This document shows, piece by piece, positions 1 to 61,555 of a DNA stretch of 64,000 bases. Below the pieces are notes generated by a model. It was not told the DNA's origin, ran no database searches, and saw only the letters and a list, made by a program, of their open reading frames with translations. Both the position numbers and the translations under genes were made by a program. Position 1 is the first letter of the stretch. The number at the start of each line of letters is the position of its first letter. The stretch covers positions 27,420-91,419 of the forward strand of contig DROS01000062.1 in assembly GCA_011321815.1 (NCBI GenBank), written 5' to 3'. The stretch is from Gammaproteobacteria bacterium. GTDB lineage: Bacteria; Pseudomonadota; Gammaproteobacteria; SZUA-152.

Positions 1-792
1 ATGGCCTGTAGCCATTGTCACAACCTCAACGACAATGGCGCCGACCATCATGCCCATGCGCCAGGGCGTGATGGCACTACTTTAAACGTCAATACCCTGA
101 CTGTTTTCAATAGTGGTTTTAATCATCAACAATTCTGGGATGGCCACGCCCGCACTTTGGAGGAGCAGGTTGATGCCGTGGTCACCAATGCCAAAGAATT
201 TGCCACCACCTGGCCAACAATCATTGGTAAACTGAAACAGGACAAAAGCTATGTCCGCAGTTTTACGAAGCTGTACCCCGATGGCATTACAGCAGACAAC
301 ATCCGTAATGCCATCGCCACCTTTGAGCGCAGCCTGACAACCATCAATTCACCCTTTGACCGTTTTTTACGGGGTGATGCCGATGCCATCAGCCCGGAGG
401 CAAAAGCAGGTTACCGCCTGTTCAAAACCTATGGCTGCGTCGCCTGCCATCAAGGCAGTAACGTGGGCGGCAATCTGTTCGTAAAGCTCGGAGTTTTCAA
501 AGACTATTTTGCCATACGCGGCAACCCCACTCGTGCAGACCTGGGGCGTTTCAATGTCACCGGCAAGGCACAGGATCGCCATGTCTTCCGCGTACCCAGC
601 CTGCGGCTCGCTGCACTCACTCCCCCCTATTTTCATGATGGCAGCGTCACAACACTGGCGGAAGCTGTGAGCTTAATGGCTGAACACCAACTGGGACGTA
701 CAATTCCGGGTCAGGATATCCTGCGCATCGTCACCTTTCTGAAAACCCTGCCGGGTGAATATCGCGGGCAGCCACTGGGACACCAGCCATGA
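1..792 (+). CDS. di-heme cytochrome c peroxidase (CCP/MauG family), 5'-truncated by the window edge
   Basis: Two CxxCH heme motifs (CSHCH at the window start, CVACH mid-protein). Length and C-terminal conservation are typical of bacterial CCP. The stop overlaps the start of the downstream kinase (ATGA). Confidence 0.7.
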   Translation: MACSHCHNLNDNGADHHAHAPGRDGTTLNVNTLTVFNSGFNHQQFWDGHARTLEEQVDAVVTNAKEFATTWPTIIGKLKQDKSYVRSFTKLYPDGITADNIRNAIATFERSLTTINSPFDRFLRGDADAISPEAKAGYRLFKTYGCVACHQGSNVGGNLFVKLGVFKDYFAIRGNPTRADLGRFNVTGKAQDRHVFRVPSLRLAALTPPYFHDGSVTTLAEAVSLMAEHQLGRTIPGQDILRIVTFLKTLPGEYRGQPLGHQP

Positions 793-34206: not shown

Positions 34207-34387
34207 AATAAGGCGGCAACCTGGAATGAATAGTGAAGGCGCATTATACGCAGTGACAGGCGGGAAAATGTAGCCATCTCCGGCGTATACCCGTGGCGTT
34301 TGGGGTTTCGGTTTAAGTGTGCGTCATATTTTCTTCATGACGAGGCGGTGAAATTTTTATGGCAACCGGGGAAACATGCAATAAAAA

Positions 34388-34897: not shown

Positions 34898-35728
34898 TCA
34901 TGGTGTTTTTTCGGTGTGTTGGCTGAGAGGCAAGCCGGGAACAGGCTTGTGCTCCTTACCAATCATTTCTGTATAAACAACAAATTTGAATGGATCAAGA
35001 AACTGTGCCGCACTTCTGATTCGGTCGGCTGCCTCTTCCTTCAGTTGTATAATGGCCTGGTTGGCGTCGTAGCGTTTTTCTGCGGCAATGGCGAATTGAA
35101 ATGCCAGTTCGAGATCACCACCAGCGATTTTTCTTTGCAACGCATTTTCGACATCGCTTGCAGAAAGCCCCAGATAAACATCTAAAAGCCGCCCATATTC
35201 AACAGAAGTCAGATTGTCCAATCCCATGGGTTCCTCACCTGAGGCATCTTCCTCCCAGATACCAGTCATATGATCCACAACCCGGGCAATAAGATGATCC
35301 CGTGGCGCCAGATAAGATAAATAAATATCCGGATGATCCTGAAGACCGGGTGGTATTAAATTGAGACGCACAATATCCTTAACCGAGTAACCATTGCGCA
35401 CAAGCTTCCTGGTGATATCAACCAACCATATATATGCGTCCCGGTATTTTCAGATTTGTTCAGGCCCATACAATAGGGTCAGAGGATAATGACCATGCAA
35501 TACCTGTTTTGCATTGCGCTTTATCACTTCGCCCATCGTTGTCATCGCTTCATCAATGAACCCCTCTTCAACCCAAGGCTCCCCGTAATACGGCATCAAT
35601 ATATCCCCAGTGAAGATAACATTTAGTATCGGCATAAAAACAAGCATGGCGTCTTCAGTTTCGCCACCCACTACAGGTATCAGTTCAATTGACGTTCCAT
35701 CAATTATTATTTCTGTACGTTGGTCCAC
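34898..35728 (-). pseudogene. remnant of an MBL-fold hydrolase (alkyl/aryl-sulfatase-like), split over at least two frames and lacking the N-terminal HxHxDH region
   Basis: The 92 aa fragment has the MBL C-terminal half (…FTGDILMPYYGE…LHGHYP). The contiguous 175 aa fragment in another frame resembles the sulfatase dimerisation region. No N-terminal metal-binding motif and no C-terminal SCP2-like domain. Confidence 0.4.
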
Positions 35729-35996
35729 AATGACATCCGGGCGGTAATTTTCGACCCATTCATTTTTGAAACCAGCTCCACGAAATTGCTGATGCTTTTC
35801 ATGGCTTTGTTTCCTTTAGTGTATATACACACATATATTCTCAAAAAAATACGCCGGCCAGAATCACCCCATAAAACGCCTTGTGAATGGGGTAGTTTGT
35901 GATATTTTTCATCTATACGTGTATATACACCCATAATCATAAACCACCAACCGGAATTATCCGTTGAACCATAGCGGGAACGACGGTGCTACGTCG

Positions 35997-37247
35997 TTAT
36001 TGGAGGTTGGGCAATGTGTCCCATAAGGCATCGAAGCGGTCCTGAAACGCACCGGCAACCACAGTATTATCAAGAAGTACGCTCAGTTCATGAGTGTATG
36101 CGAACGAGGTACGGGTCCAGTTGTGGCTCCCGACCACACACACTTTCCGGTCGACAACCAGCACCTTGGAGTGTAACAGCGTTTCTTTGGTATCCAGCTT
36201 AACCTGCACCGCGCCTGCCTGTAGGCGTTTAACAAGCGCCCGGTTGATTAATGCGCTTTTGTAGGGTACGCCGTCATCATCCTGATCCAGGATCACACTA
36301 ACCTCGACACCCGGGCGATTGGCGGCCGCCTCAAGCGCTTCCACAAGGGGTAATGGTGCACGCCCGGCCTCACCATCGCTCGCCGACCCCAGAAACACCA
36401 TCAGACTGACCGACGTCGTTGCCGCCTCAATCGCGGCTTTGGTGGCTTCGACATAGGCATCATTCACCAACAGAGCGCCTGTGGTTTTTTGGGTCGAGGC
36501 CAATAATTTTTGCCGGAGCTCGTGGCGGTTCAACCAACGCACTGCCTCGCTGGCCAAAGAACCGGCTGCGCCCGACACCGATACTTCTGCACGCTCAGTA
36601 ACAAATGCGATGAAGGCCGAAAAGCGTTCGTATGATCCTGCGCCAGCTGCGGGCAGACGGCGCTCAATGGCATTCGCATCACCAAAAACAAAAGACACAT
36701 CCGACGTTTCAAACAATACCAGGGCACGGGGAATGCCCGGCATCGACGCGAATGCCCACATCGCCGGCGAAACCAGGACAGCGCTAGGCTCATCCAGATA
36801 GCTCGTGTCCTGTAGCTGCTCAACACGCTCGGAACCAATGCCCCGAATCGCTCGCAGGGCCGCCAAATCACGGACCGGGGGACGCATCGCCAGACGTTGA
36901 CGGACATCGGTGGCAAGCTCGGCGCCAATGCCGGGCAGGGATTCAAGCTCTTGCTGTGTGGCGCTGCGCAAGCCTACCTGCGCGCCACTTCTTGAGGATA
37001 CGGGAAACTGATGCGCCGCCGCCATGACTAACCAGTCTTCCAGGTGAGCGACCGTCCGGGCCAAAAAATAGCGCTGAGCACGCTCGGGTTCCAACGGTAC
37101 ATCCGGAACCAGATGCGGTTCAACAAAACGGGCAAGCCTCACCAGCTGGCCGGCAAGGTCAGCCTGCTGCTGTTCAGTCCACGGCGAAGCAAGCCCGGCC
37201 GACCATTCACCAATACGCCCACGGGCGGTGACTTTATCGAGCGACAT
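35997..37247 (-). CDS. PLD-family protein: N-terminal tandem helix-hairpin-helix (ComEA-like) module plus C-terminal HKD domain
   Basis: HhH signatures LESLPGIGAELATDV and LRAIRGIGSERVEQL. C-terminal HxKx4D LHSKVLVVD…GSHNWT. Overlaps the upstream HKD gene by 14 nt in a different frame. Confidence 0.6.
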   Translation of the reverse strand: MSLDKVTARGRIGEWSAGLASPWTEQQQADLAGQLVRLARFVEPHLVPDVPLEPERAQRYFLARTVAHLEDWLVMAAAHQFPVSSRSGAQVGLRSATQQELESLPGIGAELATDVRQRLAMRPPVRDLAALRAIRGIGSERVEQLQDTSYLDEPSAVLVSPAMWAFASMPGIPRALVLFETSDVSFVFGDANAIERRLPAAGAGSYERFSAFIAFVTERAEVSVSGAAGSLASEAVRWLNRHELRQKLLASTQKTTGALLVNDAYVEATKAAIEAATTSVSLMVFLGSASDGEAGRAPLPLVEALEAAANRPGVEVSVILDQDDDGVPYKSALINRALVKRLQAGAVQVKLDTKETLLHSKVLVVDRKVCVVGSHNWTRTSFAYTHELSVLLDNTVVAGAFQDRFDALWDTLPNLQ

Positions 37248-37755
37248 TTTTTGGCAGCCCCTTTCCGTTATCCCATAGCGTCAAAAACTGCGCGGCAAGT
37301 TCATGAACCGCACTGCCGGTCAGCAAAACTGCATCTTCGATGTTTGCGGTGAACGCATCATCGGTCCAGTTCTGACTGCCCAGCACTGCTGTATCATCGA
37401 AAATGGCAAATTTCGCGTGCGATCCGTTTCGTTCTGCATCCGTCGAAAATATACGCCGCTGGGGAACACCTGCTCCTGCGAGATATAACCCGCTGGCAAG
37501 GTTTGCAACAGCAATATTTTGCGTCCGCACATGCCCTGTCATCAATACACGCACATCCACGCCACACTGCCGCCGTTCAATAAGCGCCGTGGTAAGCTCA
37601 AGAACCAAACCTTCGAGATCCTGACCGGGGCGGATGTCATAAATAAACAGCGATGCCCAGATACGTCGTTTCGCTGCCTCAACACTGGCAAGCGTGACAT
37701 CAAAATAGTCACGATCGTCAATGCGCACAGCCTGTGAATCTGTGAACGTAGTCAT
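37234..37755 (-). CDS. PLD-family single-HKD protein (first half of a split two-HKD enzyme)
   Basis: HxKx4D HAKFAIFDD…GSQNWT. The fold-start IWASLFIYD is colinear with the C-terminal HKD repeat of the downstream gene. Confidence 0.6.
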   Translation of the reverse strand: MTTFTDSQAVRIDDRDYFDVTLASVEAAKRRIWASLFIYDIRPGQDLEGLVLELTTALIERRQCGVDVRVLMTGHVRTQNIAVANLASGLYLAGAGVPQRRIFSTDAERNGSHAKFAIFDDTAVLGSQNWTDDAFTANIEDAVLLTGSAVHELAAQFLTLWDNGKGLPKNVAR

Positions 37756-38048
37756 GAAGTTCCTTCGTATTCGTCCAGCTCGGCAATTCGTCGGCGGATT
37801 TGCTCAATGCGGTTCTGAAAAACCAGATCGTTTTCCCGTGACACCGCCATCTCACGCATCAGGCGCTGCTGAAGTTTAAAACGCCGGTTCGGGTCCTGTT
37901 CGTTTCCTTCAAGCTCGATACTCATGCGAGTCATCACCATTGCGCTTGCACGGCTTGCCGCGCGATAGGCATGGTACAGGCGTTCAAGTTTCAGCGCACC
38001 GATGCGCGCCTTGACAGCTTCATCTCGGGTCATCATCCCCAGGGCCAC
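37752..38048 (-). CDS. hypothetical small helical protein (98 aa), operon member
   Basis: 4 nt ATGA overlap with the downstream HKD gene. Charged helical composition. Confidence 0.4.
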   Translation of the reverse strand: MALGMMTRDEAVKARIGALKLERLYHAYRAASRASAMVMTRMSIELEGNEQDPNRRFKLQQRLMREMAVSRENDLVFQNRIEQIRRRIAELDEYEGTS

Positions 38049-38320
38049 TCCAGTTTCACGCCGGGACCATCGTTCCAGTCCGGCGTCGCTCTCCCACCAC
38101 CGGGCAAATCAACGCCAGGCACTTCGAAATCGTCGAACAAACCGCCATCTGCGTCATCAGGCGCCGGGTCCCAAAAGTCATCCGGCAACCCCCCATCATC
38201 ATCCCAGTCGTCAAAATCATCCGGTACATCCAGATCAATATCATCATCTTTCAACCAGTCGTCATCGCACACCTCGCATTCGAGGCATTCTGAAAAACAA
38301 CCCAGGTTTGGATAAGACAT
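38033..38320 (-). CDS. hypothetical poly-acidic protein with N-terminal Cys4 cluster and DD[FW] repeats
   Basis: CFSECLECEVC followed by DDDWLKDDDIDLDVPDDFDDWDDDGGLPDDFWDPAPDDADGGLFDDFEVP. Estimated pI about 3. Confidence 0.45.
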   Translation of the reverse strand: MSYPNLGCFSECLECEVCDDDWLKDDDIDLDVPDDFDDWDDDGGLPDDFWDPAPDDADGGLFDDFEVPGVDLPGGGRATPDWNDGPGVKLEWPWG

Positions 38321-38322
38321 GG

Positions 38323-38601
38323 CTATTCGCTAAAGCCGAGTTCGGCCAGACTGGAATCCACAAACATCGTGAGTTCCTGTTGCGTGTACACCGATTGATA
38401 CAGAAGCCGCAGGCGTTTGATTTCACTCGGTGGATCATCAGGTGAAGCTTTGTTAATCGCACCCAGCGCCTCGGCCTTGATGCGGGCAAGGCTACCGCTG
38501 GCAGCAAGCCGACGCTGAATAAGCGATGCCTGTCGCGCCGCCAGCTGCCGCGACATCGGAATGGGTTGTAGGGTCAAGGTCTCTTTGAACACCAAGGGCA
38601 T
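38323..38601 (-). CDS. hypothetical small protein (92 aa), first gene of operon
   Basis: ORF with a 2 nt gap to the next gene. No motif recognised. Confidence 0.35.
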   Translation of the reverse strand: MPLVFKETLTLQPIPMSRQLAARQASLIQRRLAASGSLARIKAEALGAINKASPDDPPSEIKRLRLLYQSVYTQQELTMFVDSSLAELGFSE

Positions 38602-38919
38602 GCTCTAACTCCATGTTGCGTGTCATGACGACAATAAAAGCACTTTTCCAAAAAGTCCATACCTGACTCGTTTTTCTTTTCAATTCCCGGGACACCAAAG
38701 GTTTATTGCAGACATATACCCGTAGCGTTTGGGATTCAGGTCTCATTGCACGCCCTGTTTCCGCCATGGCCACGCTGTTGTCCTTGCCATAGAATAACGA
38801 TGGCGCGTCATGTCGCCTCGCCATGAAGAAAATATGACGCACACTTAAACTGAAATCCCAAGCGCCACAGGTAGTATAAACCCTGAAAGCCGGGTCATCC
38901 TTCAACCATAAACAAATAA

Positions 38920-38943
38920 GGCGAACCCCAAATGGGGTCCGCC
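38920..38943 (-). terminator. rho-independent terminator after nirK
   Basis: GGCGAACCCC-AAAT-GGGGTCCGCC hairpin, about 50 nt after the nirK stop, followed on the minus strand by UUAUUUGUUUAU. Confidence 0.6.
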
Positions 38944-38991
38944 TTACAAGGCTCAACCATAAAACAGCAGGTTGATAAATCAATACATTCT

Positions 38992-39948
38992 TTATTTATC
39001 CACAGCGCGCGGCAGAATGTTGTCACCCTTGCCCGCCTTGGGATCAGCATCCGGGCTGTTAATCAGCACAGTGATGGCGCCACGAAGAGCAGCACTCATG
39101 GTGTGGTCAACAATGGCATTGGCAGTATTTCTGCCTTCCGGCGATACGATATCCACAGCCACGGCTTCAGAAACTGCGACACCATAAGTGGCAATATCAT
39201 AAAGCGTATTTTTAGGGCTGCCATTGATGTAGACACGATCCCAGATACCCGCAATAGGATGTAAGGCAACAGGCTCATTGATGTTGGCATTCACAAAATA
39301 AAAGCGCACACGTTCGCCTGGCTTGGAGGCCAGGGCCAGAGAAGCAGCCGGATCATGCACGGGATCATAATGGAACATACGGCCATTGATCAAAGAGCCT
39401 TCCGAGCCTTCGTTACGCAGCATGGCTTTGTAGTTATCTGCATCAGGAAAATACTGGCCCTGAATCAACACATATTCACGATCAGGTTTCGGGAAATCCT
39501 TGGTGTAACCCTCTTTGGGGTCAACAATGATTACGCCATACATACCTCGTGCAATATGTTGCGCCATGACGCTGGCGCCACAATGGTACATCCACACGCC
39601 TGCCCGTTTGGCCTCAAACTTGAAATGCTTGGTTTGACCGGGTTTGACCGGGGCAAATTCTTCCAATACATGAACTTCTGCCGCATGGAAATCCATGGAA
39701 TGAGATTCTTTGTTGGTTTTGGGGTTAATAAGCTTGAAGTCGATAATATCGCCTTCAGTGACACGTACAGTTTTACCCGGAATCGCGCCATCAAAAGTCC
39801 AGGCCTTGTAGGTGGTGCCCTTGTTGTCGATTTGCACCGTGGTTTCTTTCGCGGTCATGGTGACATGTACCGTTTTGGCTTGTGCAATTTGCGTACCCAC
39901 CAGACCAATGGTCAATACCATGGCGCTTACGGATAGTTTGTTAAACAT
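38992..39948 (-). CDS. nirK: copper-containing nitrite reductase family protein (NirK-type two-cupredoxin-domain enzyme)
   Basis: Signal peptide. HSMDFHAA and MYHCG…H type-1/type-2 Cu ligand patterns. About 320 aa. Last gene of the MCO/cyt c/cyt c/NirK cluster. Confidence 0.7.
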   Translation of the reverse strand: MFNKLSVSAMVLTIGLVGTQIAQAKTVHVTMTAKETTVQIDNKGTTYKAWTFDGAIPGKTVRVTEGDIIDFKLINPKTNKESHSMDFHAAEVHVLEEFAPVKPGQTKHFKFEAKRAGVWMYHCGASVMAQHIARGMYGVIIVDPKEGYTKDFPKPDREYVLIQGQYFPDADNYKAMLRNEGSEGSLINGRMFHYDPVHDPAASLALASKPGERVRFYFVNANINEPVALHPIAGIWDRVYINGSPKNTLYDIATYGVAVSEAVAVDIVSPEGRNTANAIVDHTMSAALRGAITVLINSPDADPKAGKGDNILPRAVDK

Positions 39949-40082
39949 AGTTACTCTCCCTTTTTCGGTTAGAAAGCGTGGCTAAAATCAAAACCACTTT
40001 TAAAAAGCAGCATCCCGGCTAAAACACTCAATCCTCCATTAATAAAGTCACTCATGCACACTGCTGACTGTTTTATCAGTAA

Positions 40083-40433
40083 TCAGCCGCATTGGCAGAG
40101 TTTTCTCAGGTACTTGACCAGATCATGAATTTCATCATCGCTCAGGCTGTCGCCCCAGGGCGGCATCAGCACAGATTTGTCAATTGCCAACCCACCTTCT
40201 TTGATGACTTTAAAAAGATCGGCATCACTGCGCCCGCCCATGGCTTTGGCACTGGTATGATCGCGCGGTTGTACAGACATATCCTGCACATTGAGTCCCA
40301 TGCCATCACCTGACATTCCATGACATTGCCAGCAATAGTTTTTGTAATTGTCTTCCGCATCATCAGGCCATGCTGCTGTAGAAAAAATCAGTAGCATCAT
40401 AAAAAAAGCCGGGAATAATTTATTTTTTCTCAT
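40083..40433 (-). CDS. mono-heme c-type cytochrome (ncgC-like)
   Basis: Signal peptide from the internal Met MRKNKLFPAFFMMLLIFSTAAWP. Single CWQCH motif. Downstream Met ligand region. Confidence 0.6.
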   Translation of the reverse strand: MRKNKLFPAFFMMLLIFSTAAWPDDAEDNYKNYCWQCHGMSGDGMGLNVQDMSVQPRDHTSAKAMGGRSDADLFKVIKEGGLAIDKSVLMPPWGDSLSDDEIHDLVKYLRKLCQCG

Positions 40434-41109
40434 CCCAGTTCTCCTTTGCCAACGCTTGCAAATACTGCACAATTTTCTGAATATTGGGTTCTGCAACATG
40501 TTTATTGGGCATGGGTGTTTTCGGGTTCCACGCTTGTGGGCTGCTGATAAAGCTGACCAGATAATCCGCCTGATAACGTTTGGCGGCGGTGTAAACCTCC
40601 GGTCCGGAGAGACCACCGTAACCCGGCTCAATTTCGTGACAGGCCATACAGCCATTAAATTTGTCGAACACCATTTCACCGAAACTGACGGAAATACTGC
40701 CTCCCTTAAAAGCAGCGGCACCCATCATCTCCGCAGGCGCCTTGAGCTTCATCAAAGCCTCGGCAACATCCTCCGCTTTATCCGATGACAAGACTGGATG
40801 CGGTGTCAATGTTGCGGCATCAATCATGTCGCGTTTTTTACCTGGCTTGATGTGCTGAATATAGTGATAACCGGCAGGCCGGATGCGGCGTGGTTTAACC
40901 AACCATTTTTCCAGCCATTCACGATTGTATTTGGAACCGGCATAAAACAAATCAGGGCCTTTACGCTGCCATAATGCCTGCACACTTTGTGCGGCAGGAC
41001 CGCTGAGGTCATGACAATTCGCACAGCGTTTTTGCAGTATGGCCATGCCATCATCCGCCAGGGTTGCGCTGGCAAAAGTGAAACCAAGAAACAAAAGAAG
41101 ATATTTCAT
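40420..41109 (-). CDS. di-heme c-type cytochrome (ncgB-like, c4-like)
   Basis: Signal peptide. Two CxxCH motifs (CANCH, CMACH). Confidence 0.7.
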   Translation of the reverse strand: MKYLLLFLGFTFASATLADDGMAILQKRCANCHDLSGPAAQSVQALWQRKGPDLFYAGSKYNREWLEKWLVKPRRIRPAGYHYIQHIKPGKKRDMIDAATLTPHPVLSSDKAEDVAEALMKLKAPAEMMGAAAFKGGSISVSFGEMVFDKFNGCMACHEIEPGYGGLSGPEVYTAAKRYQADYLVSFISSPQAWNPKTPMPNKHVAEPNIQKIVQYLQALAKENWDEKK

Positions 41110-41118
41110 ATTATCCCC

Positions 41119-42201
41119 CTAGTCCCGATGCCGACGCCGTTCGCGGGTGAGAGGTGTGCCTTTGAAACGTGGGTTCTCGATCAGGCCATAACCTTTTTTC
41201 ATGGCTTCGCTGAAGAAGAAGTCCGGGTCATAGTCGATGTCTTTCCACACATACCAATCGTCCATGGGTGTGCCCTCGTATTCCATTACGGTAATGGGAC
41301 CTCCGGGAAATTTACCTCGCGCAGTCACATGCTTGTCCACATGGTCATGGAAGATAAAACGACCTTCATCGTGATTGGCTTTGATGATGACGTCATAACG
41401 CTCGCCAGGGCCGATGAGCACGGTATCGACAGAATAGGGATTGGACAGTGGCAGACCGTCTTTATGGGTAACGAGCATGTCGTGACCATGTGAATGCATG
41501 GCATGAATCGCACCGCCGGCACCCACAAAACGTACCCTCACCACATCCCCCGTTTTAAAGCGTATGGGCTGGGTCAGTGGAAAGGATTTGGCATTGACGG
41601 AAAAATAATCCTCAACATCATACGGAGTGGAGCCTTGACCGAATTTGTCAGCATTTTTACTCTCCCAGGTGGAAAGCATCATGATCACGTCTTTGGTCAC
41701 ACGTTTTTCGATCGGCAGCGGATTTTTGGGATCAACGATCAGCGGGCCCCACATACCGCGAATACCGACATGCTCGTTGACGTTGACATGACAGTGATAC
41801 CAAAGGCTGCCGATGCGGTCGGCCTTGAATTTATAAGTGTAAGTGTCACCGGGTTTGATCGGCTGCTGGGTGACACCGGGCACACCATCACTGCGCCAGC
41901 TTCCGGTCTGTAACACCCCATGCCAATGGATCGTGTGGGACAGTGTGGTGTTGTTGGTGACGTGGATAACCACATCATCACCTTCCTGAACATGGATCAG
42001 TGGGCCAGGTACCTGACCGTTAAAAGCAAAGACTTTGTATTTCAGATCAGGGGCTACATCAATCACCATCTCGTCAATGGACATGGACATCTCACGTTTG
42101 GCCGCTTGGACGAAGCTGCCAAACCCCAACGCAAAACTCACCAAAAGCAGGCAAATTGTCTGTCGGATTTTGCGTGGGCTCTTGAATCTCAAATCGCTCA
42201 T
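41119..42201 (-). CDS. two-domain multicopper oxidase (ncgA-like)
   Basis: HWHG, HCH, HAMHSHGHD and HDH copper-binding motifs. Signal peptide. A GGAGGGAG RBS precedes the MSDLRF start. Confidence 0.75.
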   Translation of the reverse strand: MSDLRFKSPRKIRQTICLLLVSFALGFGSFVQAAKREMSMSIDEMVIDVAPDLKYKVFAFNGQVPGPLIHVQEGDDVVIHVTNNTTLSHTIHWHGVLQTGSWRSDGVPGVTQQPIKPGDTYTYKFKADRIGSLWYHCHVNVNEHVGIRGMWGPLIVDPKNPLPIEKRVTKDVIMMLSTWESKNADKFGQGSTPYDVEDYFSVNAKSFPLTQPIRFKTGDVVRVRFVGAGGAIHAMHSHGHDMLVTHKDGLPLSNPYSVDTVLIGPGERYDVIIKANHDEGRFIFHDHVDKHVTARGKFPGGPITVMEYEGTPMDDWYVWKDIDYDPDFFFSEAMKKGYGLIENPRFKGTPLTRERRRHRD

Positions 42202-42253
42202 GGGTACTCCCTCCAAAATCAAATACCGTGTATATCCATCAACTTTCTCATAA

Positions 42254-43072: not shown

Positions 43073-43690
43073 ATGGGATTGGTTTCAATCGAAGTGGTTT
43101 TCTATGTTTTAGAGGCCATCACTGCGCTGGGCCTGATTGCTGTTATTGTTTTTTTCTGGAAACAATCACGCAAAAGCAAACACCAGCGCCATACCCGTAA
43201 AGTAGTGGAATCCCTGGGGGTGAAATATTTACACGATGTCGTTTTGCCGGATGGTATCGACGGACTGGTATTTATCGACTACTTGTTGTTAGTCCCTGAT
43301 GGATTTGTGGTACTGGGCACACAACACAATGCAGGCCATTTATTTGGCGGCGAAACAGTTGATCAGTGGTCGCAGGTTAGTAACAATAAAACCTATAAAT
43401 TCAACAACCCGCTGTATGACAATCAAAGCGCCTGTCAGGCAGTGCGGTGGAATTTGCAACACGCCGACAATCCATCGGCCAATACACACTGGCAGGTACA
43501 GGGCTGGGTGACGTTTTCCAATGCGGGAAATTTTCCCAAGGGCATTCCAGCACAAGTCAGCATGATTGATGAGCTGAAAAGTAATCTGGCGCCAGTGATC
43601 AAGAACAACAATATTGATGAAAATCTACAAAAGGCATGGGATGCCTTACACGATCTTTCCATCAGCACCCGGGCGGCAAATAAACACTAA
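43073..43690 (+). CDS. NERD (nuclease-related domain) membrane-anchored protein
   Basis: N-terminal TM helix. Core GIDGLVFIDYLLLVPDGFVVLGTQHNAGHLFGGETVDQW typical of the NERD family. Confidence 0.55.
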   Translation: MGLVSIEVVFYVLEAITALGLIAVIVFFWKQSRKSKHQRHTRKVVESLGVKYLHDVVLPDGIDGLVFIDYLLLVPDGFVVLGTQHNAGHLFGGETVDQWSQVSNNKTYKFNNPLYDNQSACQAVRWNLQHADNPSANTHWQVQGWVTFSNAGNFPKGIPAQVSMIDELKSNLAPVIKNNNIDENLQKAWDALHDLSISTRAANKH

Positions 43691-52672: not shown

Positions 52673-52953
52673 CTCGAAGCGTAACTATCAGTTTTTAAAT
52701 AAACAGGCATGACACCGTGTTGGGATCGACCGCTGTTAGAATAACGGCACACCCCTGAAAAACAGGCCGACTTTAGTATTCTCTTATTATTCAAAGACAT
52801 ATAACCCACCATCAGTATCACTCTGTCAGTAAAATAGTGATTTTTTCGGGAAAACCCCTGAAGTTCCGATGCATTTTGCCGCTATTTTGCAGAGAAATCA
52901 TTACTTATGGATATCAATCTTCATGGGTTTCAGCACAGCTGGAAATTAAACAT

Positions 52954-54804
52954 ATGTGGAATAGGGTCAGGACGATTCCGCGACAACACCGCGTGCGTAA
53001 GATTAACGTCTTTGCAAAGGCATTAATGTGTGCCGCTTTTTTACTTCTTTCAACATTTAGTGTGGCAGCTGAAAACGCCACCATGCCAACAAAAACCGCC
53101 ACACCCATAAAAGATATACGAATTCTGATTGATATTTCAGGAAGTATGAAAAAAACGGATCCCAACAACCTTCGCCAACCTGCCGTCAAACTGTTTGCCA
53201 ACCTTTTACCAGAAAATATACTTTCCGGTGTGTGGACGTTCGGCAAGTGGGTCAACATGCTGGTTCCCCACGGTATGGCCGACTCAGCATGGAAAGCCAA
53301 TGTCCATACACAGGCACAAAATATCAATTCAACGGGTCTGTTTACCAATATTGAAGAAGCACTGCGGCGCGCAACCTGGGACTGGAAAGAATATGATCCC
53401 GCATATGAACGCTCGATGATTATTTTATCGGATGGAGTGGTCGATATATCAAAAAGCCCAGAAGAAAATAGAAACTCAAGATCAAGAATCCTAAAGGATA
53501 TACTGCCATCCCTCACCAATGCCAAAGTAACAATCCATACCATTGCCTTATCATCCTTATCCGATAAGGATTTATTACAACAGCTGTCCTTCGCCACTGG
53601 TGGTATATATGAAACCATTGAAACAACAACAGAATTGGATAAAACATTTATGCGCATATTTGATGTCGCAACACCACGGGATGAAATACCCCTTATTGAC
53701 AATCTGGTAAAAATTGATGAGAGCATCAAAGAAATAACATTTTTGATATTTCGTAAAGAAAAATCACCAAAAACCGTTATCATCGCCCCATCAGGCGGTA
53801 AATATACTAAAAACAGCGAAGGTGTTACCTGGCATTCTGAAAAACGATATGATTTGGTTACAATAAAAAACCCGGAAACAGGGACCTGGAGAATCAATGC
53901 AGACACTGACCCGGATAATCGGGTTATGGTGGTAACCGATTTACGGTTTATCACCAACCAGCTTCCTGACAACATCCTGTCAGGAGATAGAATCCCCTTT
54001 TATGCGCACCTGGAATCTGAACAGAAAATCATAAAACGCCGGGACTTTCTTCATTTTGTACGCATGTCCATCAGACACTTCAACGAAACAAAGAAAAAAA
54101 AACGCTCTGTTAAACTAAAAGATGATGGAATAGGCGTTGATGAATACAAAAGGGATGGGATTTATTCAGCAGAAATAAAAAAAACCAAAACCTTGGGAAA
54201 GCATACATTTGAGCTTCTCGTTAATGGAACCACATTTAAACGGAAAAATACAAAAATAATAAATATTGTTAAATATCCTGCAATTATCAACATAAACGAC
54301 ACGCCTGATGGTGATATCGCCATAAAAATTGTTCCTTACCAAGACCTGGTTGATACAGAATCATTACAAATTACCGCCATCCATCATCCACCTGTTAACG
54401 ATAGCGAAGAGTATCGCATTAAGAAAACAAATTTATCAGCGTGGAAAGCGACGATTCCAACAAATAATATTTCCGGAAACCACACAGTCACCATTGAGGT
54501 TATCGGCAAAAATAAAAGTGGTAAAACAATAAACTTCGTGACAGAGCCGGAAAGTATTTTTATTGGCGAAAAAAATCAGGGACATGAAAACAATAACCAC
54601 CATTCAGAAAAAAACCATGAAGAAAGTAATCACGAAGAATCTGACAATAAGGAAAATAAATCAACAACCTGGTTTGATGTAATTTTATCGATTGTTGGAT
54701 TTAACCTGGTTTTACTATTTTTCACATTTTCCTTATATAAACTATGGGGTAAGTATAAGCATAAATTGCTACCTCCACCTTTCGAGGAAATGATTAATGC
54801 CTAG
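52954..54804 (+). CDS. von Willebrand factor type A domain protein with signal peptide, His/Glu/Asn-rich linker and C-terminal membrane anchor
   Basis: VWA MIDAS-containing core IRILIDISGSMKKTD…VWTFGKW…IILSDGVVD. C-terminal TM WFDVILSIVGFNLVLLFFTF. Confidence 0.7.
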   Translation: MWNRVRTIPRQHRVRKINVFAKALMCAAFLLLSTFSVAAENATMPTKTATPIKDIRILIDISGSMKKTDPNNLRQPAVKLFANLLPENILSGVWTFGKWVNMLVPHGMADSAWKANVHTQAQNINSTGLFTNIEEALRRATWDWKEYDPAYERSMIILSDGVVDISKSPEENRNSRSRILKDILPSLTNAKVTIHTIALSSLSDKDLLQQLSFATGGIYETIETTTELDKTFMRIFDVATPRDEIPLIDNLVKIDESIKEITFLIFRKEKSPKTVIIAPSGGKYTKNSEGVTWHSEKRYDLVTIKNPETGTWRINADTDPDNRVMVVTDLRFITNQLPDNILSGDRIPFYAHLESEQKIIKRRDFLHFVRMSIRHFNETKKKKRSVKLKDDGIGVDEYKRDGIYSAEIKKTKTLGKHTFELLVNGTTFKRKNTKIINIVKYPAIININDTPDGDIAIKIVPYQDLVDTESLQITAIHHPPVNDSEEYRIKKTNLSAWKATIPTNNISGNHTVTIEVIGKNKSGKTINFVTEPESIFIGEKNQGHENNNHHSEKNHEESNHEESDNKENKSTTWFDVILSIVGFNLVLLFFTFSLYKLWGKYKHKLLPPPFEEMINA

Positions 54805-55495
54805 CCCTGGATTAAGTACAATAATGATTTTGGGTGAAATAGTTTTAATAGAAACCATTTTAATTATTTTATACCTGGTATATCTATACTTGAAATCAAA
54901 AAAGAAAATATTAAAACTTAACGCTCTTCTTGAATCCTTTCTGAAAGATGAGAAAAACAGACTGGATATTCTCTCCTCAATGTTTCATAAATCTGAACTT
55001 ATTGATGAGGAAAAATATACCGCTGCACTAAAAAGTATCATCGAAAAAGAAAACCTGTTTTATAAATACCTGATTACCGTTTTATATCACAACGACTTAA
55101 AATCACTGGATTCCCTTTCTTCAGAAGTTCAGGAAATAATCAAACCCTGTGTAGAATTGATCCCCATTAACAAAGAAATGGATGCAGAGGAAGCCGAAGA
55201 CTCTCCCGAGGTTAATGTGGATGATGTAATGGATGAATTATTATCCGATGATGAACCAAAAATTGAAAGTGATCCCGCACTCGATTTAAGTGAATCCGTC
55301 GACGATACACTCATTACAGAAAATGAACCATTAATTGAAACAACGCTGGAAACGGATGAAATTGCAGAAATTCCCAGTGATCTGTTAAACAGTGCTGATT
55401 TGCCAATTGAAAATGAAATAGAAGCAAAAGACAGCACCGAAGAAGACACGTTTGACGACAGCAATAAGCCCAGTGAAAGTCATCAGGAAAAATAA
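54797..55495 (+). CDS. hypothetical membrane-anchored protein with highly acidic C-terminal half
   Basis: N-terminal TM helix. D/E-rich tail. 8 nt overlap with the VWA gene. Confidence 0.45.
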   Translation: MPSPGLSTIMILGEIVLIETILIILYLVYLYLKSKKKILKLNALLESFLKDEKNRLDILSSMFHKSELIDEEKYTAALKSIIEKENLFYKYLITVLYHNDLKSLDSLSSEVQEIIKPCVELIPINKEMDAEEAEDSPEVNVDDVMDELLSDDEPKIESDPALDLSESVDDTLITENEPLIETTLETDEIAEIPSDLLNSADLPIENEIEAKDSTEEDTFDDSNKPSESHQEK

Positions 55496-55506
55496 CTGTG
55501 TAAATT

Positions 55507-57147
55507 TTGACCAAAATGAAACTTTGGAACTTAAAAAACAAGTACATCCTGATTGTGGATGATTTTGCTGGCATGCGTACAATGTTACGCAACATGCTCT
55601 CCCCTTATCGTCCGGAACATATTTCGGAGGCCAACTCAGGAGAAGAGGCATTGAGCGCTATTCGGGAGCATGATTTTGACATCATTCTTTGTGATTATAA
55701 TCTTGGCCCGGGAAAAGACGGGCAGCAAATATTGGAGGAAATCAAAGAGCGGGAACTGCTCCCCTACTCTTCAATATATATTATGACAACCGCAGAAAAT
55801 ACTTCTGAAATGGTTATGGGGGCTGTGGAATATTCCCCGGATGATTATTTATCAAAACCATTTACAAAAGAAGTATTAATATCACGACTCAAAAAGCTCC
55901 TTAAAAGAAAATCAAGCCTTAAAAAAATATCCAACGCCACCCAACAACGTGATTATGAGTCTGCAATCACTTTTTGTGATGAACAACTTTCCGGGACGCC
56001 CAACAACCGTTTTGAATTACTAAAAATAAAAGCGGAACTTTTATTACGCATCAACGACTATGATGCTGTTGAAAAACTTGTCAAACCTGTCCTTGAGGAG
56101 CGTGAAATACCCTGGGCGTTGCTTTATCTGGGGCAGGCACATTATTACCGGGGAAATTATGATGAGGCAAAATTTATTTTTGAGGATTTAATCGAGGACT
56201 ACCCCAATTATCTATTTTCACATGACTGGCTTGCCAAACTTCATAGAACCCAAAAAAATTACAACGAAGCCCAAAAAATCCTGGAAAAAGCCACAATAAA
56301 ATCCCCTAAGGCCATAAAACGCCAACAACTTCTTGCTGAAGTTTCATTTGAAAATGAGGATCTTGATACATCTGAAAAATCATATAAACGGGTGACAAGA
56401 ACGGGGAAAAATTCATATTACCTGAACCCGGATGATTATTCCGGCCTTGCTGAAGTTTATTTGAAAAAAGGGATGGTTTCTGATGCATTAAACACAATTT
56501 CCGATATGAGAAAAGAATTCAGTGATGCCGCCCCATCAAAAAACATGAAATCACATATCAATGAGGCTTTTTTATATGATCGACTAGAACGGAAAAAAGA
56601 GGCCAATGGCCGCCTTGATAAAATAATTTCGATTTTCTCAAAGGACCCGGGGACGGTGACCAGTGTTGACGCTATCGAGCTGGCAAAACTTTGTTATTCT
56701 TACGAAAGAAATGATGATGGAAACAGGTTTATAAAATATACCATTAAAAATAATCATGACAACCAGGAAATCATTGATGGAATCATCGGAATCCTCACTG
56801 ATATTGGCTTCTCTAATGCAGAGATTAATGCATTGTTAAAATCACGGGATGAGGTCATCGAAATCAACAATCGCGGGGTAAAACTGGCTACCACAGGTAA
56901 AATTGCCGAATCCATATCCTTGTTCGTTGAGGCGGCAACTGCAATGCCGGAAAATCACGTCATCAATCTGAATACGGCACAATCATTGATCATGCACATG
57001 AATAAATCCGGTGCAACAGAAAAACTAATGGCGGAAACAAAAAAATATCTGGACAAGGTAAAATTTACAGGAAAACCAAGTGATAAATATAAAATATTGA
57101 CGGCTTCCTACCAAAACCTTCTGGAAACACTCGGCCTGCAATCCTGA
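55507..57147 (+). CDS. response regulator receiver domain protein fused to TPR repeats
   Basis: REC core ILIVDDFAGMR…ILCDYNLGPGKDG…YLSKP. Then multiple TPR-like 34-residue repeats. Confidence 0.75.
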   Translation: MTKMKLWNLKNKYILIVDDFAGMRTMLRNMLSPYRPEHISEANSGEEALSAIREHDFDIILCDYNLGPGKDGQQILEEIKERELLPYSSIYIMTTAENTSEMVMGAVEYSPDDYLSKPFTKEVLISRLKKLLKRKSSLKKISNATQQRDYESAITFCDEQLSGTPNNRFELLKIKAELLLRINDYDAVEKLVKPVLEEREIPWALLYLGQAHYYRGNYDEAKFIFEDLIEDYPNYLFSHDWLAKLHRTQKNYNEAQKILEKATIKSPKAIKRQQLLAEVSFENEDLDTSEKSYKRVTRTGKNSYYLNPDDYSGLAEVYLKKGMVSDALNTISDMRKEFSDAAPSKNMKSHINEAFLYDRLERKKEANGRLDKIISIFSKDPGTVTSVDAIELAKLCYSYERNDDGNRFIKYTIKNNHDNQEIIDGIIGILTDIGFSNAEINALLKSRDEVIEINNRGVKLATTGKIAESISLFVEAATAMPENHVINLNTAQSLIMHMNKSGATEKLMAETKKYLDKVKFTGKPSDKYKILTASYQNLLETLGLQS

Positions 57148-57153
57148 TCGTAA

Positions 57154-57870
57154 TTGAAAATCACCATGAAGACCAATATCAAAAAACTGGATTTTTCCAC
57201 TGTATTGGCGGGAAGCGTCCATGATATGAAAAATTCACTGGCAATGCTGCTGGGGTCACTTGCCGATATTTTATCTGAATGCCAAACTGATACCTGTTCA
57301 ATAAAAAAAGAACTTTCACGAATCCAGCATGAGGGTCAACGGGTTAATCGTGACTTAATTCAATTATTAACACTCTATAAAATAGACCAGTCTCAGTATT
57401 ATCTTAATATTGCGGAGGTTTATATTTACGATTACCTGGAAGAAATAATCCTGGAGCATGAGTCTCTACTAAGTGAACGGGGGATTGATATCTCCCTTCA
57501 GTGCGACACTGCTTTACATGGTTTTTTTGATGCTGAACTTGTTTCGGGTGTACTAAAAACAATCATAAACAACGCTTGCCAGTATACTAATGATAAAATA
57601 CTGGTTAGCGCCGAATCCGTAGACGGCTTTATAAAATTAACCGTTGCGGACAATGGAAAAGGTTATCCGGCGCACATGTTATTTGAACAGACAACGTACA
57701 AAACCACCAGTAATTTTGGCACAGGCAGTACTGGCCTTGGGCTTTATTTTTCTTCGCAAGTTGCGGAATTGCATAAAAATAAAAAAAAATGTGGCTATAT
57801 ACAGATTACCAATACCACTGACTCCAGCTCTGCACTCAAAGGTGGCTGCTTTTCGATTTTTCTGCCATAA
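57154..57870 (+). CDS. soluble histidine-kinase-like protein (H-box plus HATPase_c, no TM or sensor)
   Basis: SVHDMKNSLAML H-box. N, G1 (DNGKGYP) and G2 (GTGSTGLGL) boxes. Confidence 0.65.
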   Translation: MKITMKTNIKKLDFSTVLAGSVHDMKNSLAMLLGSLADILSECQTDTCSIKKELSRIQHEGQRVNRDLIQLLTLYKIDQSQYYLNIAEVYIYDYLEEIILEHESLLSERGIDISLQCDTALHGFFDAELVSGVLKTIINNACQYTNDKILVSAESVDGFIKLTVADNGKGYPAHMLFEQTTYKTTSNFGTGSTGLGLYFSSQVAELHKNKKKCGYIQITNTTDSSSALKGGCFSIFLP

Positions 57871-57956
57871 TTTCCTGTCGCATATCTCGTCATGGAATAC
57901 GATGTCTTCTTTGATTTTATATTTGGCCTGATTATAAAAATAAGCACACTCATAGC

Positions 57957-60371: not shown

Positions 60372-60388
60372 CCCGCGGTCGTTTTGCG

Positions 60389-61555
60389 ATGAATATACCC
60401 ACCATGCCATCGTCTCATACATCTTCAAAAATCAGTCTGCAACAGGAGTTTCCACTGCTTGATTCAATCGCTTATCTGAATCATGCCGCAGTCTCCCCAT
60501 GGCCAAGCCGGACAGTGGATGCCGTCACGACGTTTTCGCATGAAAATGCCACGCAGGGGTCAAAACATTATCTTCAGTGGGTCAATACCGAAACAACATT
60601 GCGTAAACAGTTACAACAGCTGATCAATGCCGATTCAATCAATGAAATCGCGCTACTCAAAAACACGTCGGAGGCCCTTTCCGTTGTCGCATTCGGGTTA
60701 CCCTGGCAAGCCGGGGACAATATTGTCAGCGTCAAGGGGGAGTTCCCTTCAAACCGGGTGGTGTGGCAGGCCCTGAAACCCAAAGGGGTTGAATTGCGCC
60801 TAGCCGATGTTAACAGTGCCAATCCCGAGCAGGACTTACTGGCGCTTGTCGATAAACACACTCGTCTTATCACTGTCAGCTCAGTGCAATATGCTTCCGG
60901 GTTTCAGCTTGATCTTGCCCGCATTGGCGCATTTTGCAAGAAAAACGATATCCTGTTTTGTGTCGATGCCATCCAGACTATCGGAGCACTGCAATTTGAT
61001 GTGCAGGCAATACAGGCGGACTTTGTCATGGCCGACGGCCATAAGTGGATGCTGGGGCCTGAGGGGCTTGCATTGTTTTACTGCCGCGCAGAATTACTTG
61101 AAAAACTGGCATTACACCAGTACGGCTGGCACATGACCGATACGTTTACTGATTATGACAACAATAACTGGCAGCCGGTCGATACCGCCCGCCGGTTTGA
61201 ATGCGGCAGTCCCAACATGCTGGGCATTCACGCACTTTCCGCCAGCCTCTCATTGTTGCTGGCGTTTGGAATGAAAAACGTGGAAGCCCGTATTCTGGAA
61301 AATACACGTTATCTGTTTGACCACATCAACAATGCAAAACAATTGATATTATTGAGCAATATGAATGAAGGGCGTTACAGCGGTATTGTGTCCTTTCGTC
61401 ATCGCACAGTGGACAATGACAGGCTTTTTTCACTGCTCACCGAAAATGATGTGATGTGCGCACAGCGAGGGGGCGGTATTCGTTTTTCACCGCATTTTTA
61501 TACGCCGAGAGAAAAAATTCTGCATGCCCTTGGTATTGCTATGCAGGCACGGTAA
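60389..61555 (+). CDS. class-V aminotransferase (cysteine desulfurase / selenocysteine-lyase-like)
   Basis: Fold-type I PLP pattern. Lys-containing segment DFVMADGHKWMLGPEG. Confidence 0.7.
   Translation: MNIPTMPSSHTSSKISLQQEFPLLDSIAYLNHAAVSPWPSRTVDAVTTFSHENATQGSKHYLQWVNTETTLRKQLQQLINADSINEIALLKNTSEALSVVAFGLPWQAGDNIVSVKGEFPSNRVVWQALKPKGVELRLADVNSANPEQDLLALVDKHTRLITVSSVQYASGFQLDLARIGAFCKKNDILFCVDAIQTIGALQFDVQAIQADFVMADGHKWMLGPEGLALFYCRAELLEKLALHQYGWHMTDTFTDYDNNNWQPVDTARRFECGSPNMLGIHALSASLSLLLAFGMKNVEARILENTRYLFDHINNAKQLILLSNMNEGRYSGIVSFRHRTVDNDRLFSLLTENDVMCAQRGGGIRFSPHFYTPREKILHALGIAMQAR

Follow-up and report, generated by a model that had tools for sequence, protein, structure and literature searches.

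A cassette of five tightly packed genes (A–E, about 2.6 kb) was confirmed on the minus strand at 35997–38601 of the window, which is the whole stretch of 64,000 nucleotides that was analysed. With a probability of roughly 0.4, it is read as encoding a multi-subunit HKD nuclease that is tethered to DNA and gated by small partner proteins, probably as a conflict module serving defence or addiction. The cassette is a good candidate and not a discovery, since its catalytic domain is of an ordinary kind, very few genomes carry it and its role is proposed from the genes alone. The features are collected in Table 1.

Table 1. Genes, domains, motifs and transcription signals of the cassette (positions in the window)
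Feature	Position	Strand	Length or residues	Description
Gene A	38323-38601	-	92 aa	small helical protein, no recognisable family
Conserved motif of A	38371-38430		residues 58-77	PSExKRLRLLYxxVYTxxEL
Gene B	38033-38320	-	95 aa	strongly acidic protein
Cysteine cluster of B	38267-38299		residues 8-18	CxxxCxxCxxC
Gene C	37752-38036	-	~94 aa	small helical protein, probable ATG start 38036
Gene C, alternative	37752-38048	-	98 aa	GTG start at 38048
Gene D	37234-37755	-	173 aa	PLD-fold protein with single HKD
HKD motif of D	37369-37419		residues 113-129	HAKFAIFDDTAVLGSQN
Gene E	35997-37247	-	416 aa	four-part protein
E part 1	36984-37247	-		family-specific N-terminal helical domain
E part 2	36807-36983	-		ComEA-like (HhH)2 module
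E part 3	36483-36806	-		family-specific helical middle domain
E part 4	36015-36482	-		Nuc-like PLD domain
HKD motif of E	36120-36173		residues 359-376	HSKVLVVDRKVCVVGSHN
Cassette promoter-like block	38631..38659	-		TGGACT, 17 nt, TATTGT
nirK intrinsic terminator	38916..38947	-	14-bp stem	8 GC pairs, then T-run

An earlier note on this DNA had described five co-directional minus-strand genes, and every open reading frame was found where it had been placed. The junctions were also given correctly, with a gap of 2 nt between A and B, an overlap of 16 nt between B and C, an ATGA at C/D and an overlap of 14 nt between D and E. Database homologues of C are 92–96 aa long and start at the methionine of MMTRDE; hence, C probably begins at the ATG, so that B and C, too, would meet in an ATGA overlap. 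The two ATGA overlaps and the 14-nt overlap suggest that translation may be coupled and the stoichiometry of the products matched. A GGAG ribosome-binding site precedes the start codon of A, and about 65 nt upstream of A are conserved in four Nitrosomonas-like loci, while the remaining intergenic sequence is not. The promoter-like block, which matches 8 of 12 consensus positions and falls under the threshold of the scanner, is the putative promoter of the cassette. The nirK terminator upstream of the cassette, reported previously, was confirmed and marks the upstream boundary of the transcription unit. An Rfam scan of the block for RNA elements gave sub-threshold, terminator-driven matches only. 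In a hydrophobicity scan, no segment of the five proteins, N-terminal ones included, reached the transmembrane level (E peaks at a KD of 1.39), and the products are therefore read as cytoplasmic.

D and E belong to the PLD (HKD) superfamily by catalytic motif and by Pfam domain. Both score above the gathering score of Pfam PLDc_2 (49.8 bits for D and 73.7 bits for E, cut-off 27) and both keep the complete HxK(x)4D...GSxN catalytic motif in every homologue. The motif of D is intact in 22 of 22 aligned sequences, distant variants included, and the gene has a dN/dS of 0.06; in E, 24 homologues show no change at the residues of the motif. The second part of E has the two HhH motifs of a ComEA-type (HhH)2 module, with both G-h-G hairpins conserved (LPGIG, residues 104–108, and IRGIG, residues 134–138). 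The domain matches thus bear out the view that the enzyme core consists of two single-HKD PLD-superfamily proteins, one of which carries a DNA-binding (HhH)2 module. D and the PLD domain of E are about 31% identical and look like paralogous single-HKD subunits. It had also been suggested that a two-HKD enzyme is split here; one HKD is indeed present in each polypeptide, but a fused form was never seen and the splitting is a matter of interpretation. All 24 clusters with the architecture of E are 414–433 aa long. The adjacency, overlap and paralogy of the two genes suggest that D and E may form a heterodimer, and the fused (HhH)2 module, together with the nearest structural neighbours, hints indirectly at a nuclease acting on DNA or RNA, with DNA as the probable substrate. 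The PDB entry matched best by profile, 7e0m (E 1.2e-17), is a bacterial phospholipase with two HKD motifs, and sequence alone does not tell nucleases from lipid-acting PLDs. PLD enzymes are metal-independent.

Nuc (Salmonella pKM101) and NucT (Helicobacter pylori) are single-HKD nucleases of the PLD superfamily, and their single HKD recurs in D and E. Both form homodimers without partner proteins, Nuc after secretion to the periplasm. The cassette, in contrast, has two diverged paralogues, pointing to a heterodimer, and three additional small partner genes, and signal peptides are absent; E also bears about 255 extra residues, which comprise a new N-terminal domain, the (HhH)2 module and a new middle domain. 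The NCBIfam equivalogs for NucT (NF010490-93) gave at best 32 bits, against cut-offs of 211–351. Zucchini/MitoPLD (PLD6) likewise has a single HKD per polypeptide, but it is a eukaryotic protein of piRNA biogenesis, anchored in the mitochondrial outer membrane, with neither an HhH module nor a partner operon. The module of E is of the same (HhH)2 type as that of the competence DNA receptor ComEA. ComEA itself binds DNA as a small protein, membrane-anchored or periplasmic, and lacks an enzymatic domain, whereas in E the module is an internal domain of an enzyme read as cytoplasmic; E scored 28.7 bits with the ComEA model TIGR01259 (cut-off 152.35).

The best NCBIfam and PADLOC matches of D and E are to DrmC of DISARM, and also to MkoB (Mokosh) and ZacB (Azaca), at the level of the domain. 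With the DrmC model NF038319, D reached 46.7 bits and E 45.4 bits, far under the equivalog cut-off of 133; the PADLOC models of DrmC match D/E down to E 2e-12, and those of MkoB, MkoC and ZacB match the PLD domain alone (E 6e-6 to 9e-9). DrmA/DrmB (helicase, DUF1998) and the methyltransferase are absent around the cassette in the window and in any related locus. Neither the MkoA helicase nor the ZacA/ZacC partners were found in or adjoining the cassette. The combination of genes, which the earlier note had not recognised as a described system, has no match in PADLOC, NCBIfam, Pfam or PHROGs, and a full-text literature search did not find it described. Elsewhere in defence, PLD-type END nucleases have been reported (PMC12191111), as have HKD endoDNases in BREX-related systems (PMC12839542).

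As single sequences, A, B and C gave chance-level matches only in Pfam, NCBIfam, PADLOC and PHROGs; the same was observed for every aligned sequence of A and of C against Pfam and for the A and C profiles against the PDB sequences. A showed no recognisable DNA-binding fold of the antitoxin type. In C, which has a dN/dS of 0.07–0.15, the residues L24, Y25, A30, R80 and R87 are invariant. A and C have an RLxxLY motif in common, and their being paralogues was rejected at an hhalign probability of 0.9%. In one Myxococcales copy (L011), A is fused to C via a short acidic linker and B is absent; read as a Rosetta stone, the fusion indicates that the two proteins work within one complex.

B has a net charge of −28.5, a pI of 4.05 and a dN/dS of 0.04–0.09. 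Two motifs had been singled out in it previously. The cysteine cluster is present in the copy of the window; a conserved metal site was rejected, since the cysteines are lost in several homologues (three have two and two have none). B of the window has five [DE][DE][FWY] triplets, where shuffled sequences would give 1.2 (p = 0.001). Outside the lineage of the window, the DD[FW] repeats are not significant, and they were discarded as a motif of the family. Judged from its homologues, B is characterised as a family by a very acidic protein rich in Pro, Gly and aromatic residues, in which the four cysteines and the repeats are lineage-specific. The ends are conserved (MS[YF]xxLG at the N-terminus, PxW[DN]xxG at the C-terminus), and the acidic Pro/Gly/aromatic-rich stretch between them is a linker; the protein is predicted to be largely disordered and no folded mimic. 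That an acidic partner is a recurrent trait was borne out, as the homologues of B have net charges of −14 to −32 in 12 of 12 cases and, among six distant D–E pairs that were read, four have an unrelated very acidic protein (−10 to −51) upstream and one a mildly acidic protein. B itself is not universal: besides its absence in L011, its place in a Bacteroidales variant is occupied by a basic Cys-rich protein, and a universal 'acidic plug' is hence not required.

Barstar and the colicin immunity proteins are acidic nuclease inhibitors. Barnase–barstar, colicin DNase–Im and the DNA mimics Ocr/ArdA are likenesses of the cassette in that an acidic small protein accompanies a nuclease (here a presumed one); the analogy is purely functional, as B is without sequence or structural relationship to barstar, Im, Ocr or ArdA and differs from them in its predicted disorder and its loss in one variant. 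B may have an inhibitory role.

In the proposed mechanism, D and the C-terminal domain of E would form a heterodimer that builds one phosphodiesterase active site of the Nuc/Zucchini type, and this site would be kept on nucleic acid (probably DNA) by the (HhH)2 module of E. The obligate, non-enzymatic partners A, B and C would gate or target the nuclease. A and C, as helical proteins acting together, could serve as an adaptor or sensor, and B, probably disordered, could be a polyanionic, DNA-like plug of basic DNA-binding surfaces. The nuclease would be turned on invading DNA or on the own cell (defence or abortive infection), or the whole would work as an addiction element in the manner of a toxin and its antidote. 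PLD-family nucleases act as effectors in known defence systems, which speaks for the gated-nuclease reading. It is doubtful that the cassette is, further, the founding case of a new defence or abortive-infection nuclease system, in which B silences the nuclease and a sensor made of A and C releases it upon foreign DNA or a phage factor; such a mechanism would comprise three protein families without known relatives.

The full cassette was found in 10 of 185,579 species genomes, and the N-terminal architecture of E in 24 protein clusters among 1.84 billion. The A–E block as a whole is kept in at least 14 loci, and every full locus carries all five genes together. The cassette is spread over at least seven phyla in unrelated flanks, its hosts being Acidobacteriota, Myxococcota, Alpha- and Gammaproteobacteria, Planctomycetota, Bacteroidota and a cyanobacterial MAG. 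Cultured strains that bear it include Paraliomyxa miuraensis SMH-27-4 and Arenibacter algicola E3M18. The nearest relative of the betaproteobacterial copy is acidobacterial (72% identity in D and 55% in E). This distribution fits the lateral spread of an autonomous module, and its patchiness supports ancient transfer between phyla. Against relatives at a dS of 0.6–1.4, a dN/dS of 0.04–0.15 was obtained for each of the five genes, indicating strong purifying selection.

The earlier note had also proposed a horizontal acquisition, in part from the GC content. The excess is real: the GC of the block is 0.560 and the window averages 0.475, which places the block in the top 0.7% of all stretches of 2.6 kb. 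It is no sign of recent transfer, however, because the neighbouring housekeeping gene recJ has the same excess (GC 0.577, and equally so in GC3) and the cassette is syntenic in relatives with matching dS. Within the Nitrosomonas-like lineage, the cassette has been passed on vertically at one locus beside ppiC-recJ and has diverged in step with both genes; it is more stable there than typical defence genes. Adjacency to recJ is restricted to this lineage, flanks differ in the other loci, and an all-against-all comparison of 14 loci gave no conserved flanking genes besides A–E. The remnant downstream of the cassette had been called sulfatase-like, an identity that found no support, as its reading frames are without Pfam or PDB match.

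A link to defence islands or mobile elements was not upheld. Of 75 flanking open reading frames around eight genomic copies, 3 match PADLOC, a small sample that weakens the defence reading without excluding it. By their Pfam content, the flanks consist of metabolic or housekeeping genes, and the Thiocapsa locus is the sole one with a known defence gene nearby. The cassette was not found by tblastn in plasmids (PLSDB) or phages (INPHARED), nor was it found in IMG/VR. The role as a toxin/immunity or defence module thus stays a working hypothesis; it is weakened by the missing guilt by association in the flanks, by the empty plasmid, phage and viral collections and by the fixation at one locus in the Nitrosomonas-like lineage.

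The same stable, vertically inherited locus beside recJ, the strong selection on all five genes and the lack of links to mobile elements or defence islands would also suit an accessory machine of DNA processing or repair, in which the DNA-tethered HKD phosphodiesterase cleans DNA ends or adducts, or degrades DNA to salvage nucleotides, as has been proposed for NucT, and A–C are structural subunits. Tdp1 is known to clean DNA ends or adducts. For NucT, one paper implicates the enzyme in purine salvage and natural transformation (PMC5714352). Such a role is nonetheless unlikely: the cassette is extremely rare, its distribution across phyla conflicts with the phylogeny, which is unusual for a repair function, it neighbours recJ in a single lineage, and no repair genes are conserved together with it.

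Rather less probable is a selfish toxin–antidote cassette with no anti-phage role, in which D–E would be a nuclease toxin, at least one of the small proteins would serve as its labile antidote, and the cassette would persist since cells that lose it die. The autonomy of the unit in unrelated chromosomal contexts, without integrases or defence neighbours, would agree with it, as would the tight translational coupling and the likeness of the acidic small partners to barstar and colicin immunity proteins. Known toxin–antitoxin pairs, however, need far fewer than five genes, A has no recognised antitoxin-type fold, and the plasmids searched, although a frequent home of addiction modules, lack the cassette. 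Multi-copy or decayed copies were not seen either, save for a D-like fragment in L006.

It is quite improbable that D–E acts on a lipid or another phosphodiester, for example in head-group exchange like a cardiolipin or phosphatidylserine synthase, with the HhH module serving another purpose. NCBIfam gave weak matches to cardiolipin synthases, and some loci have lipid genes as neighbours (an acyltransferase and a CDP-alcohol phosphatidyltransferase in L002 and L003, a fatty-acid desaturase in L092 and a 3-hydroxyacyl-CoA dehydrogenase in L093). These neighbours vary between loci, though, and the synthase models remained near 27 bits (26.8 against a cut-off of 281 for ClsB, NF008427; 27.3 against 290 for TIGR04265). 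Also against a lipid enzyme speak the canonical (HhH)2 module with both hairpins conserved, the absence of membrane segments and the single HKD per polypeptide, which is the arrangement of Nuc, NucT and Zucchini. Finally, by their shortness, their lack of a database family and the low complexity of B, the three small genes might pass for chance reading frames in the GC-rich leader of a two-gene PLD operon; this is refuted for practical purposes by their order and size being kept across phyla at 33–65% identity, by the low dN/dS at a dS near 1 and by their translational coupling.

If the gated-nuclease reading is true, a PLD-family nuclease would here be packaged and controlled in an uncharacterised manner: it would be a heterodimer instead of a homodimer, carry a ComEA-like DNA clamp by fusion and depend on three small proteins without recognisable family. 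B, as a disordered polyanion, could then be a DNA mimic encoded by the host; such mimics are more familiar from phages, which use them as weapons. The unit is compact, autonomous and conserved across phyla. For the genomics of nitrifiers, it follows that five 'hypothetical' genes between nirK and ppiC-recJ are a stably inherited functional unit and not junk acquired recently. In GenBank, A, B, D and E are each named 'hypothetical protein', and the 94-aa homologue of C carries the same name.

Five open reading frames on the minus strand, genes A to E, were found with the positions and spacing described in the earlier note, and a strong terminator (38947-38916) was found for nirK, as had been proposed. 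Homologues of C in the databases are 92-96 amino acids long, their first residue being the Met of MMTRDE, and ATG 38036 of C overlaps the stop codon of B as ATGA, seen in GGATGATGAC. On this evidence, the junctions from A to E are most likely a 2-nt gap, ATGA, ATGA and a 14-nt overlap. The promoter-like block upstream of A and a GGAG ribosome-binding site 5' of A are conserved in four Nitrosomonas-like loci; the remainder of this intergenic region is not conserved among them. Hydrophobic segments of sufficient length to form a membrane helix or a signal peptide are lacking in all five proteins. In GenBank, A, B, D, E and a 94-aa homologue of C are hypothetical proteins (ENK04_09915-09935) of a metagenome-assembled genome (MAG) labelled 'Gammaproteobacteria bacterium'.

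Genes of the cassette, domains of protein E (AF2 model) and structures listed under the E model with their values
Feature	Position	Strand	Size or value	Remark
Gene A	38323-38601	-	92 aa	
Gene B	38033-38320	-	95 aa	
Gene C	37752-38048	-	98 aa	
Gene D	37234-37755	-	173 aa	
Gene E	35997-37247	-	416 aa	
Promoter-like block	38631-38659			TGGACT, 17 nt, TATTGT; upstream of A
E, N-terminal helical domain	residues about 1-88			
E, (HhH)2 module	residues 89-147			
E, helical middle domain	residues 148-255			
E, PLD fold	residues 256-411			
Nuc			20.1	
NucT			19.0	
Bacterial phospholipase 7e0m			18.8	
Vaccinia F13			17.6	
Zucchini			17.3	
BfiI			14.1	
ComEA			11.0	HhH module

The cassette is real, rare and so far uncharacterised. 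With E as the query, only 27 relatives were found among 5.8 billion proteins, and genes of about 90, 90, 95 and 172 aa precede E in every relative with a readable contig. When A-E were compared by tblastn with the loci fetched up to that stage, the full A-B-C-D-E order was observed in an acidobacterial MAG, Paraliomyxa miuraensis (Myxococcota), a Wenzhouxiangellaceae and a Thiocapsa MAG (Gammaproteobacteria), a Porphyrobacter MAG (Alphaproteobacteria), a Planctomycetota MAG, Arenibacter algicola (Bacteroidota) and two more Pseudomonadota MAGs. A motif scan for protein A in 241 million metagenome records gave five loci, and the whole cassette is present in all three that were new (L097, L099, L101). 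All-against-all comparison of the flanking ORFs of 14 loci revealed no further conserved genes beside A-E. Each of the five genes has a dN/dS ratio of 0.04-0.15 when compared with relatives at dS 0.6-1.4, and the ratios of the adjoining recJ and ppiC lie in the same range; these values and the conserved gene order exclude chance ORFs.

D and E constitute the enzyme core. Both exceed the PLDc_2 (Pfam) cut-off of 27 bits (D 49.8, E 73.7), exactly one complete HKD motif is present in each, and helix-hairpin-helix (HhH) models match E residues 89-147; the proposed PLD pair with an HhH module is thereby confirmed, and the proposed nuclease core is supported as a prediction. Among 24 homologues of E the HKD residues are invariant, and no fewer than 90% of these proteins keep the HhH glycines; the HKD motif of D is intact in 22 of 22 aligned sequences, distant variants included. 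The AF2 model of E is confident (pLDDT 88.5); its N-terminal and middle domains gave no convincing match and are found in this family only. In single-HKD enzymes such as Nuc, the active site is formed by two subunits. Since D and E are adjacent, overlapping and diverged paralogues (D shares about 31% identity with the PLD domain of E), they would probably work as a D:E heterodimer.

The small proteins A, B and C have no family match in Pfam, NCBIfam, PADLOC or PHROG, and A and C have none among PDB sequences. C is helical, with invariant L24, Y25, A30, R80 and R87. B in the window has a net charge of -28.5, the CxxxCxxCxxC cluster and five [DE][DE][FWY] triplets, compared with 1.2 in shuffles. 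The cluster is present as claimed but is not a general feature, as only 7 of 12 homologues have four cysteines, three having two and two having none (replaced by R/N, K, L and I); likewise, the DD[FW] repeats are enriched in the window's own lineage but not significantly elsewhere. B is conserved at its ends (MS[YF]xxLG and PxW[DN]xxG), and its net charge is -14 to -32 across homologues. The composition of its linker (Asp+Glu 18-35%, aromatic 11-17%, Pro+Gly 20-35%, almost no Lys/Arg) suggests an intrinsically disordered polyanion. In a Myxococcales MAG (L011, JANNHJ010000477.1, 1030-1614), A and C are fused into a protein of ~190 aa with a short acidic linker, followed by D and E, and no separate B gene is present. 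The fusion argues that A and C would physically work together and that a separate B may be dispensable in at least one lineage.

A wider, divergent family of D and HhH-E pairs was also found (L014, L015, L016, L019, L021, L031 and L034; E 27-30% identity), and the upstream ORFs were read for six of them. A helical protein of 104-125 aa precedes D in five; in four of these the preceding gene encodes an unrelated, very acidic protein (-10 to -51), and in the remaining one the preceding protein is only mildly acidic (-2.5). A basic, Cys-rich protein of 73 aa occupies the position of B in L014, a Bacteroidales MAG. Given this protein, the mildly acidic case and the lack of B in L011, the co-encoded acidic partner is recurrent but not universal.

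The cassette block, with a GC content of 0.560 (window mean 0.475), ranks in the top 0.7% of equal-sized windows. The excess noticed earlier is thus real, but it is not a mark of foreign origin, since recJ is as GC-rich (0.577) with a similar GC3. In all Nitrosomonas-like relatives (E 81-97% identity) the cassette lies beside ppiC-recJ, with nirK or its remnants upstream, and divergence is similar (D 91% and E 81-83% versus RecJ 86-91% identity). With GC shared by recJ, and synteny and matching divergence in relatives, recent horizontal transfer does not hold; the comparison indicates long vertical inheritance within this lineage. For this betaproteobacterial copy, the closest relative is acidobacterial (55% identity in E and 72% in D), the full cassette is found in 10 of 185,579 species-representative genomes, and a profile of E residues 1-262 recovered 24 full-length clusters, all of 414-433 aa, from 1.84 billion cluster representatives, every other match covering the generic HhH stretch only. 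Hence, great rarity and lateral dispersal go together with stability once the cassette is resident. Short NirK-like remnants (63-81% identity over 68-80 aa) upstream of the cassette at L085 1240-1479, L087 8231-8434 and L088 2434-2637 suggest that nirK decayed here in some Nitrosomonas-like lineages.

The reading we hold most firmly is biochemical: D and E would form a cytoplasmic, DNA-tethered HKD phosphodiesterase, in complex with A and C and usually also B, as tight translational coupling and strict co-inheritance suggest. For its role we favour, with a probability of about 0.4, a gated conflict nuclease serving defence, abortive infection or addiction. This fits an autonomous module, its rarity and phylogenetic patchiness, a potentially dangerous nuclease encoded with small partners able to restrain it, and the PLD nucleases that are effectors in known systems. 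The toxin/immunity or defence function put forward in the earlier note is plausible, but it is unsupported by genomic context: among the 75 ORFs around eight genomic copies, only 3 have PADLOC matches, and the genes nearby are of metabolic or housekeeping kinds such as P450, aldehyde dehydrogenase, peroxiredoxin, LigA and oxidoreductases, neighbourhoods with precomputed Pfam annotation being housekeeping as well. Moreover, no copy was found in 72,556 plasmids, 50,697 phages or IMG/VR. A known defence gene lies near the cassette at the Thiocapsa locus only; it is situated ~1 kb downstream (L008 12281-14002) and encodes a DUF4041 plus T5orf172/MUG113 protein of the PD-Lambda-1 type (PADLOC). A DNA-processing role outside conflict is unlikely, a purely selfish addiction module appears rather improbable, and a non-nucleic-acid substrate is very doubtful.

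In its mode of working, the cassette is most like the Nuc/NucT/Zucchini class. It falls within none of the curated families, the scores being 32 bits or less for NucT (cut-off 211 or more), 45-47 bits for DrmC (cut-off 133), 28.7 bits for ComEA (cut-off 152) and 26.8 bits for ClsB (cut-off 281), and it lacks the partners by which DISARM, Mokosh and Azaca are defined. A description of the A-E combination was not found in the full-text literature searched, the coverage of which is incomplete and gives absence of evidence only; this agrees with the view that the combination is undescribed. PLD-family nucleases in autonomous modules are known, and the novelty would lie in the heterodimeric, HhH-tethered, three-partner architecture.

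Several observations concern the flanks. A 60-nt inverted repeat (34288-34347 and 38814-38873; 92% complementary, core ~90 nt) occurs in only these two copies in the 64-kb window. Its arms bracket the cassette, a 951-bp remnant and ppiC: one follows the nirK terminator, and the other is placed between recJ and the terminator of ppiC. Both arms are present in the sister MAG L090, but L084 and L088, which are related more distantly, have neither. The repeat could be a recombination/inversion site, a MITE-like element or a shared regulatory element. The 97%-identical sister MAGs L090 and L091 lack exactly the 951-bp low-GC segment (35020-35970) that directly follows the stop codon of E, and they retain only the tail of a degraded ORF from this region; the ORFs of the segment, earlier labelled 'sulfatase-like', have no Pfam or PDB match. 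The upstream neighbours (38992-42222) encode a multicopper oxidase, two c-type cytochromes and a NirK-like copper protein, which we take to be the arrangement of Nitrosomonas ncgABC-nirK, and a NERD-domain protein is encoded at 43073-43690. A markedly low-GC stretch (52800-60400; 0.36-0.40) codes for a VWA-domain protein, several histidine kinases and a response-regulator-TPR protein, and may represent a signalling island that was acquired independently.

At other loci, eCIS_core domains occur in two flanking ORFs, with no established link to the cassette. In the Wenzhouxiangellaceae MAG, the intact cassette is preceded, ~4 kb upstream, by an extra D-like fragment (L006 5352-5507; 65% identity over 52 aa), perhaps what is left of a second copy after decay. 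Downstream of the cassette in L092 (4533-12411) lie large genes for proteins of 441, 315, 491, 1241 and at least 4254 aa without a Pfam domain, the last with a faint LysM match.
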